Virus record (IMG/VR): IMGVR_UViG_3300017705_000602
Source of the DNA: a virus
Taxonomy: Duplodnaviria > Heunggongvirae > Uroviricota > Caudoviricetes
Reading direction: 5' to 3' (one strand)
DNA length: 64,000 nt
Below the pieces are notes generated by a model, which had not been told where the DNA came from, searched no databases, and saw only the letters and a list, made by a program, of their open reading frames with translations. Each line of letters opens with the position of its first letter. Position 1 is the stretch's first letter. The translations under genes and the position numbers were made by a program. Below are positions 27,207 through 35,869 of this stretch, piece after piece.

Positions 27207-27458
27207 ATGTTCAAGCAACATCATTACAAAGTAATAATTGCTAGTTTAGGTATCCTGGTAGCGTTGTCGGGTTGTGGCAAGCAAGAGCAGAATGACGAAA
27301 AACAAGTTGATACGCGCCCTGTACTGACAGTGACTCATTTTGTAACACCCGAAGGACTTGAGTGCGTGTCTATTAAGCCGCGCTTTAATAGCGATCCCGA
27401 AGGCATCAGTTGCAACTGGGCCGACTGGGTTTGGCGAAGAAATAACGGAAAATTATGA
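27207..27458 (+). CDS. lipoprotein
   Basis: Lipobox LSGC. Confidence 0.7.
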   Translation: MFKQHHYKVIIASLGILVALSGCGKQEQNDEKQVDTRPVLTVTHFVTPEGLECVSIKPRFNSDPEGISCNWADWVWRRNNGKL

Positions 27459-27823
27459 AACACAAAATGTATTGCATTTTCGCAAAAGAAAGTGTAAAAA
27501 AGATGAACGGTATACGCGGTAAAATGTGTACACAGGCAGGGCATGCATACGTGCATACGCTGTTACAAGCACAGCAAGACTGGCCCGAGCATGTGCAAGC
27601 ATACTTAGACAGCGGGCATGCGTACAAAATAACGCTCATTGTTGATACAGTTGCACAGTTAGAAGCATTGCAAAAGGCCTATGTCAACCAATGCGGAACA
27701 AAGCTAGTAACCGACAAAGGCTTTACTGTGTTCACTGAACCAACTACAACCTGCTTGGGCATTGGCCCAATCAGTGAAGATCTTGTTGGTGACGACTTAC
27801 AAAACTTGAAAACTTTTACGTGA
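27455..27823 (+). CDS. pth2: peptidyl-tRNA hydrolase, Pth2 family
   Basis: GKMCTQAGHA, KITL, DKGFTVF..PTTTCLGIGP. Confidence 0.85.
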   Translation: MKHKMYCIFAKESVKKMNGIRGKMCTQAGHAYVHTLLQAQQDWPEHVQAYLDSGHAYKITLIVDTVAQLEALQKAYVNQCGTKLVTDKGFTVFTEPTTTCLGIGPISEDLVGDDLQNLKTFT

Positions 27824-28235: not shown

Positions 28236-28727
28236 ATGGATTTTATATTAGGACTGATGCTTACGCCAATCTTTGTTGGCGCATTGTTTTTATTTGCGGT
28301 TATTGCCGATCATACTGAACACGAAGGCTGGGCTTCATTTATACTGCTTTCATCATTTGCAATTCTGTACCACATATTCAAAATTGATTTGGTTACAATT
28401 GCATACGGAGCCGGTGCGTGGATTGTAGCAGGTGTAGTGTACTCATTTGTTAGATGGATGTACCAGTGCAATCGGGCAGCCGGCATGTACGAAGCCAAGT
28501 CAATAGACAAATACCGAGCACTGGAAATGACTGACATTGCCAGGAACAAAGGCACAATCACATACTGGGCATTTGCTTGGCCAATAAGCTTGGTGTCCAC
28601 AGTTCTTACCGATTGCTTGTCGTGGATGGGCAAATGGTTACACTTTGCGTTTGGTAATGCATTTAGATGGGCAAGTGACAAATCACGTATGCGCATTAAC
28701 GATATTGCAAACGACAGAAACGATTGA
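28236..28727 (+). CDS. membrane protein
   Basis: Multiple TM segments; TTGACA promoter. Confidence 0.7.
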   Translation: MDFILGLMLTPIFVGALFLFAVIADHTEHEGWASFILLSSFAILYHIFKIDLVTIAYGAGAWIVAGVVYSFVRWMYQCNRAAGMYEAKSIDKYRALEMTDIARNKGTITYWAFAWPISLVSTVLTDCLSWMGKWLHFAFGNAFRWASDKSRMRINDIANDRND

Positions 28728-28818
28728 GTCCTGGGTCCAACTAGGAACGAAAGCCGCTGATCGGTTACGTTGAATTGTGCTAGACAGTTCGGAAACTTGC
28801 GGTATCTAGCAAACTTTA

Positions 28819-28909: not shown

Positions 28910-29386
28910 ATGATGATTATTGACGGTGCGCCAGATGACGGATCAGTTACACTGCGTTTACACGAACGCAAAGGATCAAAGTTCTTTACCAGGCATAACG
29001 GTAAGTTTCATTTTAAAATCGACGGTGTTTTCATTTCTTATCGTCGCAAGGTATACAATATATCTACTCGCTCCACAGAATGGTACAACAATTCAACAGT
29101 CGGCAGACACAAAAGCAAAACCAATATCAAGTTTTGTGATATATTTGTGTCCAACGAAGAGCTTTCATTTTATGCATTGCAAAATGTATACTTTATCGAA
29201 GGCCTCACTGTCAAGAAAGCAATACCGTACGGTGTCGATACTGCTATTAAACTCGATGTTGAAGATTTATTCTCAAATCGCCCGAGCACAATAAAAACAA
29301 TCAGTGTATGGGACGGTAAAAATGCACGCGCAATCGAATTGTGCGAAAGCGGAAGATATACAACGGGCACAGTTGACACACGATAA
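28910..29386 (+). CDS. hypothetical protein
   Basis: 158-aa ORF with SD. Confidence 0.65.
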   Translation: MMIIDGAPDDGSVTLRLHERKGSKFFTRHNGKFHFKIDGVFISYRRKVYNISTRSTEWYNNSTVGRHKSKTNIKFCDIFVSNEELSFYALQNVYFIEGLTVKKAIPYGVDTAIKLDVEDLFSNRPSTIKTISVWDGKNARAIELCESGRYTTGTVDTR

Positions 29387-29401
29387 GAGTTAGTGTATCA
29401 T
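29373..29401 (+). promoter_or_regulatory. sigma70-type promoter for tRNA-like RNA cluster
   Basis: TTGACA-17bp-TATCAT. Confidence 0.7.
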
Positions 29402-29424: not shown

Positions 29425-29639
29425 GGCCGCTGGCGTATTAGAAAAAAGTGTATAAAGACGTAGCTGGGTGAGTTACGGTAGAAGAAAAAACTTTAACTTT
29501 ATACATCTAAGGACGCCGAATTAGTTGGACTGAAACAGAATGCGGAATGCTTTGAGATACTTGCACACCACAAGTAGCCGGGCAGGAGGCAACTGTGGAA
29601 TAAGACGATTGCTTGGTTCGAATCCTTCAGCGGCTGCCA
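29425..29639 (+). ncRNA. 215-nt tRNA-like RNA
   Basis: GGCCGCT/AGCGGCT acceptor-like stem + G-CCA, GGTTCGAATCC T-loop, long internal helices. Confidence 0.7.
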
Positions 29640-29645
29640 AATTAC

Positions 29646-29823
29646 GGAGAGAGCTGGCTTGTTAGATTTGCAGGTTTAGCTTGCTATGCGGAGCTACACC
29701 AAGGAAAGGCTTTTAATTTGAACATGTCGACACGCTGTTTTCCTGCAAGAGTCAGTAGTAGGCACGGAATGATTTCTAGCCGGAACTTGGTAGTGGATAG
29801 TTCGAATCTGTCCCTCTCCACCA
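29646..29823 (+). ncRNA. 178-nt tRNA-like RNA
   Basis: GGAGAG/CTCTCC + A-CCA, GGATAG-TTCGAAT-CTGTCC T-arm, internal helices. Confidence 0.75.
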
Positions 29824-29829
29824 TTTTAT

Positions 29830-29954
29830 GCGGAACGATTGCACAGCAGAAACTGAGTACTAAGTTTCATTAGCTGGTTTGGTATTTAGCATGAGTTTCT
29901 TCGAATCAGCTAGCGTGAAGAAGAAATGGTAGTTCGAATCTACCGTTCCGCGCC
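29830..29954 (+). ncRNA. 125-nt tRNA-like RNA
   Basis: GCGGAAC/GTTCCGC + G-CC, GGTAG-TTCGAAT-CTACC T-arm, 12-bp internal helix. Confidence 0.75.
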
Positions 29955-29971: not shown

Positions 29972-30259
29972 ATGCCACCGACTTACAAGCACCTTAAAGA
30001 ACCTACTGTGGGGGAAGCAATGCTAGATCATAACTACTGGGAAGAATACGAAATAGAACTCGAACCTGGTACGTTGTACTATCGCATTGAATCAACTTCG
30101 CTGATACGTCCAAACGACATTGTGCGCTCTGAGTTTTCCAGCAACAAGTGGTTTGTTGTACACGAACGGTATACTGCGTGCATTGGATATTCAATTGAAG
30201 ATCTTGCAATTAAGTTTAAGCAGGCACCATTCACAGAAGTGCTAAGGGAGTACTTGTAA
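29972..30259 (+). CDS. hypothetical protein
   Basis: 95-aa ORF with SD. Confidence 0.65.
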   Translation: MPPTYKHLKEPTVGEAMLDHNYWEEYEIELEPGTLYYRIESTSLIRPNDIVRSEFSSNKWFVVHERYTACIGYSIEDLAIKFKQAPFTEVLREYL

Positions 30260-30558
30260 TGAGCTGGATATCAAAAATTAAACAACATCTATCCAGTTCA
30301 GAACCAAGTCAAGATCCTGCACCAATCGAATTGTTACCACACAAATATTTTTACGGTTACTATATTGACTTACACGAAAAAGAAGTTTACTCTATAAAGA
30401 GTGGAAAATTAAAAAAGCTTCAAAAGAAAACATGGAAAGGTGTTACTTCAGTTACCCTTTCGCATCAAGGTAAATCAAAAACACAAGTGATTGACAAGCT
30501 AGGAAAATTTGTCGATCGTAAACCGACTAACACAATATTGCTACATGTTAGCATGTAA
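30259..30558 (+). CDS. hypothetical protein
   Basis: Basic 99-aa ORF coupled to upstream stop. Confidence 0.65.
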   Translation: MSWISKIKQHLSSSEPSQDPAPIELLPHKYFYGYYIDLHEKEVYSIKSGKLKKLQKKTWKGVTSVTLSHQGKSKTQVIDKLGKFVDRKPTNTILLHVSM

Positions 30559-30647
30559 GGAGTTTTACACTTTGTAAGTCTTGTGCAGTTGTGCAAGCGG
30601 ATAAGCCGGATAAGCATTGTGATGGTGGAGTGCCGGCACTTTTTATT

Positions 30648-31364
30648 ATGAAATATAAAACAGTAAACAGCGTGCAGGCACAGTTCAAGGACTTGACAGC
30701 CGATCTTGAAACTCAGCTTGTCGGTCATGCTAAAAAATGGAATAGAAAATCTGGACTATTGTCGTTCGGGCCAATGGCATACTGTCATGTTACATTTCAG
30801 AATGGCTCGCCAGCTTTTGAGATTAACTTGCTGAGTGATCAGTTTGGTGAACTCGACGAAGAGGTACAGCTTGACATTCCGTATTCGTATAAAATAAAAG
30901 CCACTTACGATCGCAAGCAGAAAGTGTTTGTGCTCAGCACAGTTGAAATCGATTATATAGCGTACTACCAAGACGAACGTTCAAGGTGCAAGTTATCGAC
31001 ACCCGAAACTACAACTAACCCACGTTTGATCGCTATCATTGAAAAGAAGTTCAACAACAACTTTAACTTATCAAGCGATCAAGAAAAAACTTACATGTTG
31101 TTAAATGGTCACCGGTGTCGTGGTGAACTGATGAAAGGTGTGCTTGAAGATGTGTTCGAATGTTTTCAAAAGTTTGTAGATCTTGATGCGCGTCGAGCAA
31201 AAAGAAATCGTGTGTTTGCTTGTACTTTTGGGTTCTGGATACACCCTAGCATGATCGACACTAAAAGTCAGTTCCAGATTGTAATAAGCTCGATGTTTAA
31301 TGGCATGGTTTCGTTCAGCATGTTCAAGATATATCTCGGGCTGTTGATAATGTGGCTGGTATGA
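30648..31364 (+). CDS. hypothetical protein
   Basis: Long ORF, C-terminal hydrophobic segment. Confidence 0.65.
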   Translation: MKYKTVNSVQAQFKDLTADLETQLVGHAKKWNRKSGLLSFGPMAYCHVTFQNGSPAFEINLLSDQFGELDEEVQLDIPYSYKIKATYDRKQKVFVLSTVEIDYIAYYQDERSRCKLSTPETTTNPRLIAIIEKKFNNNFNLSSDQEKTYMLLNGHRCRGELMKGVLEDVFECFQKFVDLDARRAKRNRVFACTFGFWIHPSMIDTKSQFQIVISSMFNGMVSFSMFKIYLGLLIMWLV

Positions 31365-32215
31365 ATATATTAATCGACTCATTGTTTACATCATCCGGCA
31401 TACAAAAAGACTCGTTTGTGTCCTGTGTAGAGGACACTCGCTGTAAGGTGTTTGTGTCAAACTATGTTCGTCACCGAGGTCAATTTGATGTTAGCGTTCC
31501 GTCGACAGAACCTTTATTGGTGTATGGATCAATTCAGTTTGTCGAAGACGCCTTAAAGTACTTTACAAATGCAGTTGCATTTTATCATCCTTCTCGATTT
31601 TCTGTTTCGTATGCAATGTCAAACCTTCCAGTTGACATGTTTGTTAACAACGATGCTTATTTTTTTCCGGTCAGTGTACTGCAACAACGATATGCATTAC
31701 GAAAACATAAAGGAATAAGAAACACTGCTGATCAGGACAAATATTTCATAAGGTCGGACAGCGGCAAAAAGCTGTTTGCCGGTAAATGTATTCCACACAA
31801 CGAATTGCACTGCTTCGATAGAGAAGGATTGTCTCCGCATAGCATAGTGGTGTTCAACCAAGCTAAAGATATCCGCATGGAAGTACGATGCTTTATTTAC
31901 GGTGACCAGGTTGTTAGTTGGTCGGTTACACATCTACACGGCAACCCAGTAACAGAATATACCGGCCCGGACAAGATTGCATTCTCTTTGGTTACGTTTG
32001 CAGAAGAAGTTGCCCAAACTGTCGATCAGCTAGGATTTCTAGACACTGTGTATGTGTGCGATGTTGCGCTTTATCGGGATATCGGAAACGGAAGAATGCA
32101 CATTGGTATTATGGAATTTAATGCTGCCTCTACATCCGATTTACACAACTGCGATATAACAGCAGTGTTCACAGCAATGGTCGACTGTATCAACAAAGAA
32201 AACGGTTGCATTTGA
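31361..32215 (+). CDS. ATP-grasp domain protein (DUF4343-like)
   Basis: FIRSDSGKKLFAG, EVRCFI, VYVCDVA, IMEFN. Confidence 0.7.
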   Translation: MNILIDSLFTSSGIQKDSFVSCVEDTRCKVFVSNYVRHRGQFDVSVPSTEPLLVYGSIQFVEDALKYFTNAVAFYHPSRFSVSYAMSNLPVDMFVNNDAYFFPVSVLQQRYALRKHKGIRNTADQDKYFIRSDSGKKLFAGKCIPHNELHCFDREGLSPHSIVVFNQAKDIRMEVRCFIYGDQVVSWSVTHLHGNPVTEYTGPDKIAFSLVTFAEEVAQTVDQLGFLDTVYVCDVALYRDIGNGRMHIGIMEFNAASTSDLHNCDITAVFTAMVDCINKENGCI

Positions 32216-32562: not shown

Positions 32563-32632
32563 TTCCCTGGTAGGTTACAGGCAGTGTCTTTAAAACCCGC
32601 GCCTTGGAGTTCAACTCTCCACAGGGAAACCA
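32563..32632 (+). tRNA. atypical tRNA-like gene with UUA (ochre-reading) anticodon
   Basis: TTCCCTG/CAGGGAA + A-CCA, TGGAG-TTCAACT-CTCCA T-arm, loop CT-TTA-AA, very short D-arm. Confidence 0.6.
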
Positions 32633-33686: not shown

Positions 33687-34004
33687 ATGAATACATATTT
33701 AAAAACTCAAGCAAAACTGCTCGCAGTGCTAATGGTCAAGGAAGTTCTTGCTAAAGGCATTGTGTCAATTGAATTCTACAAAGCCGACGACACAGTTAGG
33801 CCCATGCGTGCTACACTAGATCCGAATCTTTTGCCTGCAAGCGAAAAGAAAGATGAATACGATTCTGCAATTGATCTTAACGTTGTAAAAGTTTTCGACG
33901 TTGAAGCAACAGCATGGCGTTCATTTCGCATGGACAGACTAAAGTCAATCGACGGACTTGACTACAAATTGTACTTTAACAATTTTTTCGAGTCAGCAAT
34001 TTAA
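33687..34004 (+). CDS. WYL-like SH3-fold protein (DUF2693-like)
   Basis: FYKADDTVRPMRATL...VFDVEATAWRSFR. Confidence 0.75.
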   Translation: MNTYLKTQAKLLAVLMVKEVLAKGIVSIEFYKADDTVRPMRATLDPNLLPASEKKDEYDSAIDLNVVKVFDVEATAWRSFRMDRLKSIDGLDYKLYFNNFFESAI

Positions 34005-34075: not shown

Positions 34076-35869
34076 ATGTCATTAGTTAAATTATCACTTG
34101 CATTGTTCAACGTAGTGCCAGAAAGCACAAAACCGCCAGCAAAGTCTGCGCATGTAGACCTTGACAATGGCATAGTAATTTCAAAAGAAGCAAGATATGC
34201 TAAGGCTGATATCGTTGCGTTCCTGAAACAAAAGAAACTGTCGGGCGAAGATCTAAACAAGACATGGCACAAAACATGGGCCGAAGTCAAGTCAAGAGAA
34301 AACTCGCACGATGTTGTCCAAGCAGTCATGGGGTTCATTAACGGACTCGGTGCAAAGCTGGACAAAGAAATTCGTTTACCGAACGAAACAATCGGCATTG
34401 ATGATCTAGATTTGCGATTGCAGACTGTGGTTGCAGTGCCAGTTGATGAAATCAACGACCGTGCTTTGCAAATGTTACAATCTGGCATGGCACTAAAAAC
34501 ACAAACAATACACGATTTGTTTGAGATATTGTCTGCTACAGGTTATCAGTTTACTGGCGACGAAGATATACGCAACAAAGAAGCCGTTGTTATACTTGCT
34601 GATACTCATGGTATCTATCCAAAAGAGCCAGTTGAGGCTCTACGCTATGCAGTATACAAAGCTACCGATTCGGCCATGCTGATCAAGAGTGCGGGTGCAG
34701 TAGAAGCAATCAAGGCGTCTTCATTTGATGCAACAGATGTATTCAAAGACGTAGGCGAGACTCGAATGTCCGAAGTGTTCAATCGCTTCAAGCCATTGTT
34801 TCTTGCATTCAAAGGCAAGTCTGCTAAGTCACGTTCGTCAGTTAACCGTATTGCAAAGCTGAGCAAAACACATCACAAGCCAATGCCTGTGAATGCCTTG
34901 CAAGAAGTTACTGCTCGTAGACTGGTGGACACTGAATTACACTGGCTGTCCAATGCAACTGTGTTTGCACTGTTCAAGGCATTGTCTGCTTGTCATACAC
35001 GCATGAATGGTCGCACAGTGTTTGCATACCACATACGTAACGGTAAAGGCTGGTACAAGACAGAATCGTGCAAAGCGTCTTCGGATGACTTACAGCACAA
35101 CTTTGATCTAATAGTGAATGAACTAAAAGGTCGTGTGAACACCGAAGGTAAAAAGATCTTTATACCGGAAGGTATTGAATTTGCCCTGCCTACATCCGAA
35201 AAGATGTTTGTTGGCAATATTCCAACTGGTACCAAGTTCACATCCGATGGTATTGCCGCTGGCATATATTGGAGAAACGAATGGGGTGCAACCGATCTCG
35301 ATTTGTCTACTCTGGACGTCCGTGGTACAAAAACTGGCTGGAACTCTTTTTATACCAGCCAACACGGCGAAATTGCATACTCGGGTGATATAACCGATGC
35401 ATACAACGGCGCAGTCGAATACATGAATATTCAGTCAGGTATAACCGAACCGGTGTTGTTGCTTAACAATGTGTACTCAGGTAACGAAGATTGCGAATAC
35501 AAGGTTGTTGTGGGTCAAGGTACCGATATTACAAAATCGTACATGATGGATCCTAATAGTGTATGGGTAGAAGCAATGTCCGCATCGGTGAAACGCGAAA
35601 CCATAGTCGGATTGTTTTTACCGGAGACTGGTAACCGAGCTTCGTTTGTGATGCTTAACACTGCTATCGGCAATGCGAATGCGTCTGCAGGCAATATACA
35701 CTCTACTCAATTCAACCGTGCGTTGGTTGAGCAGTACAGCAATCAATTTTCGTTAAATGAATTGTTAGAATATGTAGGTTTTGAGTTGACACCATCGCAG
35801 GATGATGCTACAATAGACTTATCGTTAGACAACTTGGATCGTGATACATTTGTATCGTTATTCAGTTAA
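34076..35869 (+). CDS. 597-aa protein with helical N-terminus and TerD-like C-terminal domain
   Basis: GIYW...DLDLS...GWN...YSGDITDA..GAVEY resembles the TerD core. Confidence 0.6.
   Translation: MSLVKLSLALFNVVPESTKPPAKSAHVDLDNGIVISKEARYAKADIVAFLKQKKLSGEDLNKTWHKTWAEVKSRENSHDVVQAVMGFINGLGAKLDKEIRLPNETIGIDDLDLRLQTVVAVPVDEINDRALQMLQSGMALKTQTIHDLFEILSATGYQFTGDEDIRNKEAVVILADTHGIYPKEPVEALRYAVYKATDSAMLIKSAGAVEAIKASSFDATDVFKDVGETRMSEVFNRFKPLFLAFKGKSAKSRSSVNRIAKLSKTHHKPMPVNALQEVTARRLVDTELHWLSNATVFALFKALSACHTRMNGRTVFAYHIRNGKGWYKTESCKASSDDLQHNFDLIVNELKGRVNTEGKKIFIPEGIEFALPTSEKMFVGNIPTGTKFTSDGIAAGIYWRNEWGATDLDLSTLDVRGTKTGWNSFYTSQHGEIAYSGDITDAYNGAVEYMNIQSGITEPVLLLNNVYSGNEDCEYKVVVGQGTDITKSYMMDPNSVWVEAMSASVKRETIVGLFLPETGNRASFVMLNTAIGNANASAGNIHSTQFNRALVEQYSNQFSLNELLEYVGFELTPSQDDATIDLSLDNLDRDTFVSLFS

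Follow-up and report, generated by a model that had tools for sequence, protein, structure and literature searches.

What purpose might be served by three consecutive phage genes whose RNAs would begin and end like tRNAs, and yet hold no normal D and anticodon arms between those ends? The question arises in a 64-kb stretch of DNA—hereafter the window, meaning the whole of the sequence that was analysed—in which those genes occupy positions 29425..29639 (R1, 215 nt), 29646..29823 (R2, 178 nt), and 29830..29954 (R3, 125 nt) of the plus strand with spacers of 6 nt, just as the original prediction had placed them. Because the window encodes a MoxR-type ATPase with 46.7% identity to those of the Pseudomonas phages PA5oct, MIJ3, and Paride, we assign it to a marine jumbo phage with PA5oct among its relatives; the window or a part of it occurs in 20 listed sequencing runs, every one a marine or seawater metagenome. 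A contig of 319,623 bases carries a 90%-cluster member of the 95-aa open reading frame (ORF) downstream of R3, and the window therefore probably covers about one fifth of the phage genome. Contigs of four out of the four other runs compared reproduce the R1–R3 region in part at a level of at least 99%, with no listed piece covering the entire stretch and with T29712C as one listed variant, and the region is for that reason not an assembly artefact.

The three RNAs share those elements by which a tRNA is recognised from the outside. Each has paired 5' and 3' ends, a TTCGAAT T-loop, and a CCA or CC end, and in each the stretch from T-loop to discriminator comprises 12 bases, as in tRNA; the acceptor stem, the T-loop, and the NCCA end of the canonical molecule are present throughout, with the qualifications that the T-stem of R1 has only 2 bp and that R3 ends in CC. 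A pattern composed of T-loop, acceptor, and CC, defined after R1–R3 had been seen, matched three times in the window, always at adjacent sites, as against one match in 200 shuffled windows. The tRNA-like ends and T-loops of R1–R3 are beyond chance. The decoding half, by contrast, is missing as had been claimed: no cloverleaf of 70–95 nt with a normal D arm and a 7-nt anticodon loop carrying U33 was found, and the interiors (the cargoes) are unrelated to one another. Of the three helices proposed for those interiors, GTGTATAAAG/CTTTATACAT and TAGCTGGTTTG/CGAATCAGCTA were recovered with a mean pair probability of 0.91, whereas TTGCAGG/CCTGCAA, assigned to R2, is complementary on paper but reached a pair probability of at most 0.003 and would cost 5.3 kcal/mol.

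Standard tools pass over the locus. ARAGORN called no gene in the window, in keeping with the expectation of no or pseudo calls, and R1–R3 matched no Rfam family at the gathering score, a search at E values of up to 10 yielding only three chance-level matches. An 86-aa ORF over the RNA genes (29613-29873) was rejected as spurious, with no counterpart in the related record G001 described below. Ahead of R1 stands the sigma-70-type promoter that had been predicted (29373..29401, plus strand; −35 box TTGACA at 29373, a 17-nt spacer, and −10 box TATCAT at 29401), matching the consensus at 11 of 12 positions; the window is not enriched in promoter sites of this class (14 found versus 16.6 expected). 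Directly downstream of R3, a 95-aa ORF (29972..30259, plus strand) without a Pfam or PHROG family is probably part of the same transcript; three further relatives of it are known as proteins (P0003-P0005). A 158-aa ORF of no known family (28910-29386, plus strand), absent from G001, overlaps the −35 box with its last codons.

Among 28 phage loci that hold a relative of the peptidyl-tRNA hydrolase PTH2 of the window, one (L005, in the 104-kb record G001) is syntenic with it: 13 of the 19 window ORFs tested match that record in the same order, and the MoxR ATPases of the two phages are 86% identical. The relative keeps the promoter, at a similar distance from the first RNA (21 nt versus 23 nt in the window), two oversized tRNA-shaped genes, and an ORF after the RNAs that is 45% identical to the 95-aa one. 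Two further loci, L031 and L032, are identical in sequence to L005 and were left out of all counts. Protein-led searches for additional relatives returned only the L005 phage or nothing, and a blastn search with the L005 cassette against phages gave no match. No gene for a CCA-adding enzyme was found in G001. Apart from the two oversized genes, the one T-arm element of that record whose ends resemble those of a tRNA is R4, a small gene to which we return below.

R1 offers the best view of how such an RNA would be built. It is predicted to consist of an acceptor, a long arm that starts at position 8 and ends in a three-way junction, a second hairpin, a weak T-arm, and G-CCA; the acceptor has 7 bp, an eighth pair being in competition with the pair that opens the long arm, and is followed by discriminator G73 and an encoded CCA. 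The weakness of the T-stem, which the original prediction had remarked upon, amounts to 2 bp and two U-U juxtapositions, and in both phages that stem is irregular, with 2–3 bp. Domain 1 (29432..29517, plus strand) comprises, in order, a 5-bp basal helix, an internal loop in which A29437 (A13 of R1) faces G29511-G29512, a 4-bp helix, an A-rich bulge, a 10-bp helix, and the junction with two hairpins.

The folding z-scores of R1 (−1.91) and of its ortholog, of 214 nt (+0.19), are weak. A model built from the R1 sequence alone found L005:8870-9083 from end to end (43.5 bits, rough E of 2e-11). Aligned in this way, the two RNAs have 86 of 88 cells paired and show change on both sides in 21 of 45 pairs, whereas sliding the partners lowers the pairing to 35–44%; since that alignment had been fitted to the structure, and only two distinct R1 sequences exist, we also tested a fixed template of 19 domain-1 pairs. 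In L005 the template found 18 pairs at the expected register, with (0, −2) scoring best among 1650 offsets, a score that 1 of 500 shuffles attained, although no more than 19 of the 46 stem and bulge bases of the domain are identical between the two RNAs. The same template reaches 16–17 pairs in R2, in R3, and in the second L005 RNA at unrelated offsets, so that any long helix will score high. The segment lengths are constant across R1 and its ortholog, the unpaired loop bases GAAGA, TTGCACAC, and GGAA-AAG are kept, and no reading frame is shared. The compensatory changes show selection on the R1 fold in two phages, as read from two sequences only.

A search with the R1-end pattern gave eight matches, namely the ortholog and seven canonical tRNAs, all seven being phage tRNA-Gln with the same acceptor and G73, a pattern that was built from R1 itself; among the PTH2 loci no tRNA-Gln with the first three pairs of R1 was found. 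The R1 pattern had no match in bacterial genomes, the R1 model applied to 37 loci and 44 whole records found only L005 and weak tRNA-end matches, blastn with R1 found nothing among plasmids, and blastn with the R1–R3 cassette against 97 phage records yielded T-arm matches alone.

R3 combines a 7-bp acceptor with two small hairpins, a 13-bp helix, a purine-rich linker, a 5-bp T-stem, G73, and a CC end whose final A is not encoded, and its folding z-score is −3.67. The second L005 RNA (L005:9092-9244; z-score −2.78, no encoded CCA) is probably its ortholog, to judge from 12 of 14 bases shared before the T-arm, which agreement 7 of 300 shuffles attained. A search with the R3 motif pattern gave two matches, one being L005 and the other a chance match without tRNA ends. 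In R2 a 6-bp acceptor, a long irregular arm (29698-29791), a 6-bp T-stem, A73, and CCA can be discerned; its folding z-score is weak (−1.49), an exact 29-nt R2 pattern had no match in viral contigs, and no counterpart was found in L005. The set of RNA genes is labile, in that the second L005 RNA is without CCA and R2 is missing there. A descent of the genes from tRNAs is likely in view of the R1 acceptor and G73, which are of the tRNA-Gln type, and of the first three pairs of R2, which are of the Ser type.

The PTH2 gene of the window (27455..27823, plus strand; PF01981, E of 4e-15) lies 1.6 kb upstream of R1, and PTH2 is a marker of phage tRNA arrays: 26 of the 28 loci with a relative hold at least two tRNA genes, the two others being L002 and L005. 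Short spacers of 5–8 nt, into which those of R1–R3 fit, account for 71 of 121 in the tRNA arrays of the PTH2 loci. R1 begins 27 kb downstream of MoxR, and the tRNAs of PA5oct begin 33 kb downstream of the PA5oct MoxR, so that the RNAs occupy the site at which relatives keep tRNA arrays. No decoding tRNA or tmRNA was found, either in the window or in the 104 kb recorded for the relative. The simplest reading is that the locus was formerly a tRNA array of which only the non-decoding members survive, with the reservation that tRNAs may lie elsewhere, since both records are partial: the window covers 64 kb, as against about 320 kb for the longest contig that matches its genome, and G001 is 29% complete. 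The locus also suggests that such RNAs can persist after all the decoding tRNAs of an array have gone, in which case they would be retained for something other than translation.

Several other elements near the locus deserve mention in their own right. R4 (32563..32632, plus strand) is a tRNA-shaped gene of 70 nt that has no D arm and is kept at L005:13435-13504. Its T-arm is perfect, it ends in A-CCA, and its extended stem is bulged and carries a loop with the sequence Y-U-UUA-A-A in either phage; if displayed, that loop would be an ochre-reading anticodon. A conserved intergenic element with three hairpins (28727-28800, plus strand; L005:8720-8793) shows double-sided change in 4 of 17 pairs, and a second one (30556-30654, plus strand; L005:11411-11521) has a GGATAAGCCGGATAAGC core and shows none in 26 predicted pairs; neither matches Rfam. 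An ATP-grasp protein of the R2K clade (31352-32215) and a WYL_2 protein (33687-34004) are encoded on the plus strand within 4.5 kb of the RNA genes. Elsewhere among the PTH2 loci, oversized tRNA-shaped genes that had escaped calling stand within phage tRNA arrays (L007:5586-5706, about 118 nt; L027:1654-1761, about 108 nt), and in a tRNA-shaped element of 61 nt (L024:9436-9496) the acceptor, D arm, and T arm are present and the anticodon arm is cut to a few bases.

Taken together, the best overall explanation in our view, to which we would give a probability of roughly one half, is that R1–R3 are non-decoding RNAs of the kind of T4 RNA C, matured by RNase P, that act as decoys for a host tRNA-binding protein. 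The parts of this proposal are of unequal strength: R1–R3 are very probably maintained non-decoding RNA genes, they are probably processed like tRNAs, and the decoy function is a guess that we put forward tentatively. According to the proposal, the upstream promoter would yield one precursor carrying all three RNAs, which host RNase P would cut at the first G of each and host 3'-end enzymes would trim or complete to CCA; RNase P, RNase Z, and the CCA-adding enzymes are described as recognising the tRNA elbow (PMC4810234). The products would be stable RNAs whose shape may occupy a host protein that reads the elbow or the CCA end. The original prediction, a tRNA-derived chassis that carries cargo, gains from the ends, the T-loop, and the promoter retained in L005, from the compensatory changes in the R1 interior, and from the precedent of T4 RNA C, and loses the R2 helix. 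As to the target, phage tRNA regions counter tRNA-directed defences, as set out in one report, whose anti-defence tRNA required its anticodon (PMC11555353), and a second attributes anti-defence functions to such regions and names a decoy role as possible (PMC13096335). Anticodon nucleases would be the least likely targets, because R1–R3 have no anticodon loop.

If, alternatively, the tRNA half were only a tag for maturation and stability, the R1 cargo with its three-way junction would bind a phage protein or another RNA, and no mimicry of tRNA would be involved. This reading, which is the chief competitor and which we nevertheless hold to be rather unlikely, would accord with the cargo being the best-conserved structure and the T-stem a weak one in either phage, with the retention of the unpaired loop bases of R1, and with the small ORF of unknown family that follows the RNAs in either phage. 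It would leave unexplained why three unrelated cargoes should all be provided with an amino-acid-type acceptor, which in R1 equals, together with G73, that of phage tRNA-Gln; nor was any antisense match longer than 13 perfect bases found in the window.

A further possibility, which we consider improbable, is that the RNAs are aminoacylated without decoding and serve as amino-acid donors or as sinks for EF-Tu, R2 being charged by seryl-tRNA synthetase, an enzyme that ignores the anticodon. The first three acceptor pairs of R2 speak for it, inasmuch as GGA/TCC denotes Ser in 23 of the 31 distinct phage tRNAs with those pairs, and a relaxed ARAGORN run called a Ser(gga)-like 3' half in R2, with the PTH2 gene nearby. 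The discriminator of R2 is A73, however, versus G73 in 20 of those 23 Ser tRNAs; its anticodon-like GGA arm has C33 and a pair probability of 0; R2 is missing in L005; and no aminoacyl-transferase was detected among the 42 window proteins scanned.

That the genes are functionless relics of a lost tRNA array, decaying and swollen by insertions, seems to us quite improbable. The position of the locus at a site of tRNA arrays, the lability of the gene set, and the weak folding z-scores of R1, R2, and the R1 ortholog would all be expected of decay; the double-sided pair changes across R1, the constant segment lengths, and the retained promoter would not, and a fold kept despite such sequence turnover argues against it, though only two sequences exist. 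For R2, which has no ortholog, decay may still hold. Finally, it is highly improbable that the genes are precursors spliced to ordinary tRNAs, or minimal tmRNAs, for although they are oversized and have tRNA ends, as does an intron-bearing tRNA of about 321 nt in the related locus L025, the extra sequence, in contrast to that of L025, is not flanked in the folds by an intact D arm and anticodon stem, the 50–140 nt concerned are below the size of a group I intron, no Rfam intron matched, and the tmRNA hallmarks considered next are missing. The L025 gene itself (L025:3021-3341, also in L026) encodes a tRNA with a CAT anticodon, and the roughly 245 nt that interrupt its anticodon loop are probably a group I intron.

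Both tmRNA and bacterial Y RNA join a tRNA-like top half to a larger body that is not tRNA. The G3-U70 pair of tmRNA is absent, pair 3-70 being C-G, A-U, and G-C in R1, R2, and R3, respectively; with no ARAGORN or Rfam call for a tmRNA, and with R1 and its ortholog sharing no frame that might encode a tag, we rejected that identity. Bacterial Y RNA (YrlA) was rejected as well, there being no match to RF02553 and no Ro60/TROVE gene in G001 or among 23 window proteins by Pfam. A neighbouring 597-aa protein (34076-35869, plus strand; 61% identity over 341 aa in the relative) has no Pfam or PHROG family; its nearest Atlas clusters are viral hypothetical proteins, and TerD and Prok-RING_4 appear on about one fifth of the members only in more distant clusters. 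From canonical phage tRNAs (RF00005), above all tRNA-Gln(UUG) for R1 and tRNA-Ser for R2, our RNAs differ in having neither a normal-size D arm nor a canonical anticodon arm and in their length of 125–215 nt, whereas the acceptor pairs, the discriminator of R1, the T-loop, the CCA, and the spacers are alike.

The closest cultured relative, PA5oct, is reported to produce two abundant phage non-coding RNAs, ncRNA001 and ncRNA002 (PMC7318152), which unlike R1–R3 are without T-loop or CCA ends. The R1 model matched neither the PA5oct genome nor the other named phages among the 44 records, and the PA5oct tRNA region held no uncalled tRNA-shaped gene. Our literature search on such phage RNAs found none, older and subscription papers being mostly out of its reach, so that absence from print is not implied.

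The best precedent is the one that the original prediction had named, the stable RNAs C and D in the tRNA cluster of T4, described in two papers as expressed and of unknown function (PMC9697503, PMC3014915). It stands for RNA C, whose top half is like that of R1–R3, and is weaker for RNA D (species 2 RNA, rnaD), a stable RNA with an encoded CCA end, but with no TTCGA T-loop in the sequence and neither a T-arm nor a 5'/3' acceptor in the folds run. The gap between RNA D and RNA C is 6 nt, equal to the spacers of R1–R3. RNA C (species 1 RNA, rnaC; NC_000866.4 70908-71046, 139 nt) shares with R1 the paired ends, the TTCGAAT T-loop, the second hairpin, and an oversized non-decoding interior. R1 differs in its length of 215 nt, its three-way junction, the full pairing of its acceptor, the encoded CCA, and the weak T-stem, and the present locus in comprising three genes with no decoding tRNA beside them. 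The R1 models had no match in the T4 genome, nor sequence homology to rnaC; our verdict, drawn from sequence and predicted folds, is that R1–R3 would be of the RNA C kind by build and not its sequence homologs. A C in place of U at the first T-loop base is found both in the second L005 RNA and in one RNA C homolog.

The likeness extends to one detail: in RNA C, as in R1, a long arm follows the acceptor immediately and has an A/GG internal loop at its base, the A opposite GG coming after a basal 3-bp helix in RNA C. The loop is present in all six of the T4-family RNA C sequences aligned, that is, T4 and five homologs chosen for divergence out of 806 matching records; in R1 its conservation concerns three bases in two sequences, against a background identity of 41%, and it was not seen in R2 or R3. 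In our model this loop is likely a remnant of the D-loop: the basal helix of R1 would correspond to the D-stem and the A and GG to A14 and G18-G19, the long arm's basal GG bulge might form an elbow with the T-loop, and R1 would look as if a domain of 73 nt had been inserted into the D-loop.

The locus adds to the plan of T4 RNA C an unrelated family whose fold is defined by compensatory change, and it brings out that ARAGORN and Rfam miss all of these RNAs, T4 RNA C included, there being no Rfam family for RNA C or RNA D. A bolder proposal, which at present we would call doubtful, is that R1 and RNA C form one structural class in which the D-loop has been opened between A14 and G18-G19 with the elbow kept, and that a jumbo phage shedding its decoders retained these mimics against host defences that bind the elbow or the CCA end. 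The shared A/GG loop provides a testable feature linking the two RNAs; were the proposal true, they would represent a class of RNA anti-defence factors, and the question of what T4 RNA C does would have its answer.
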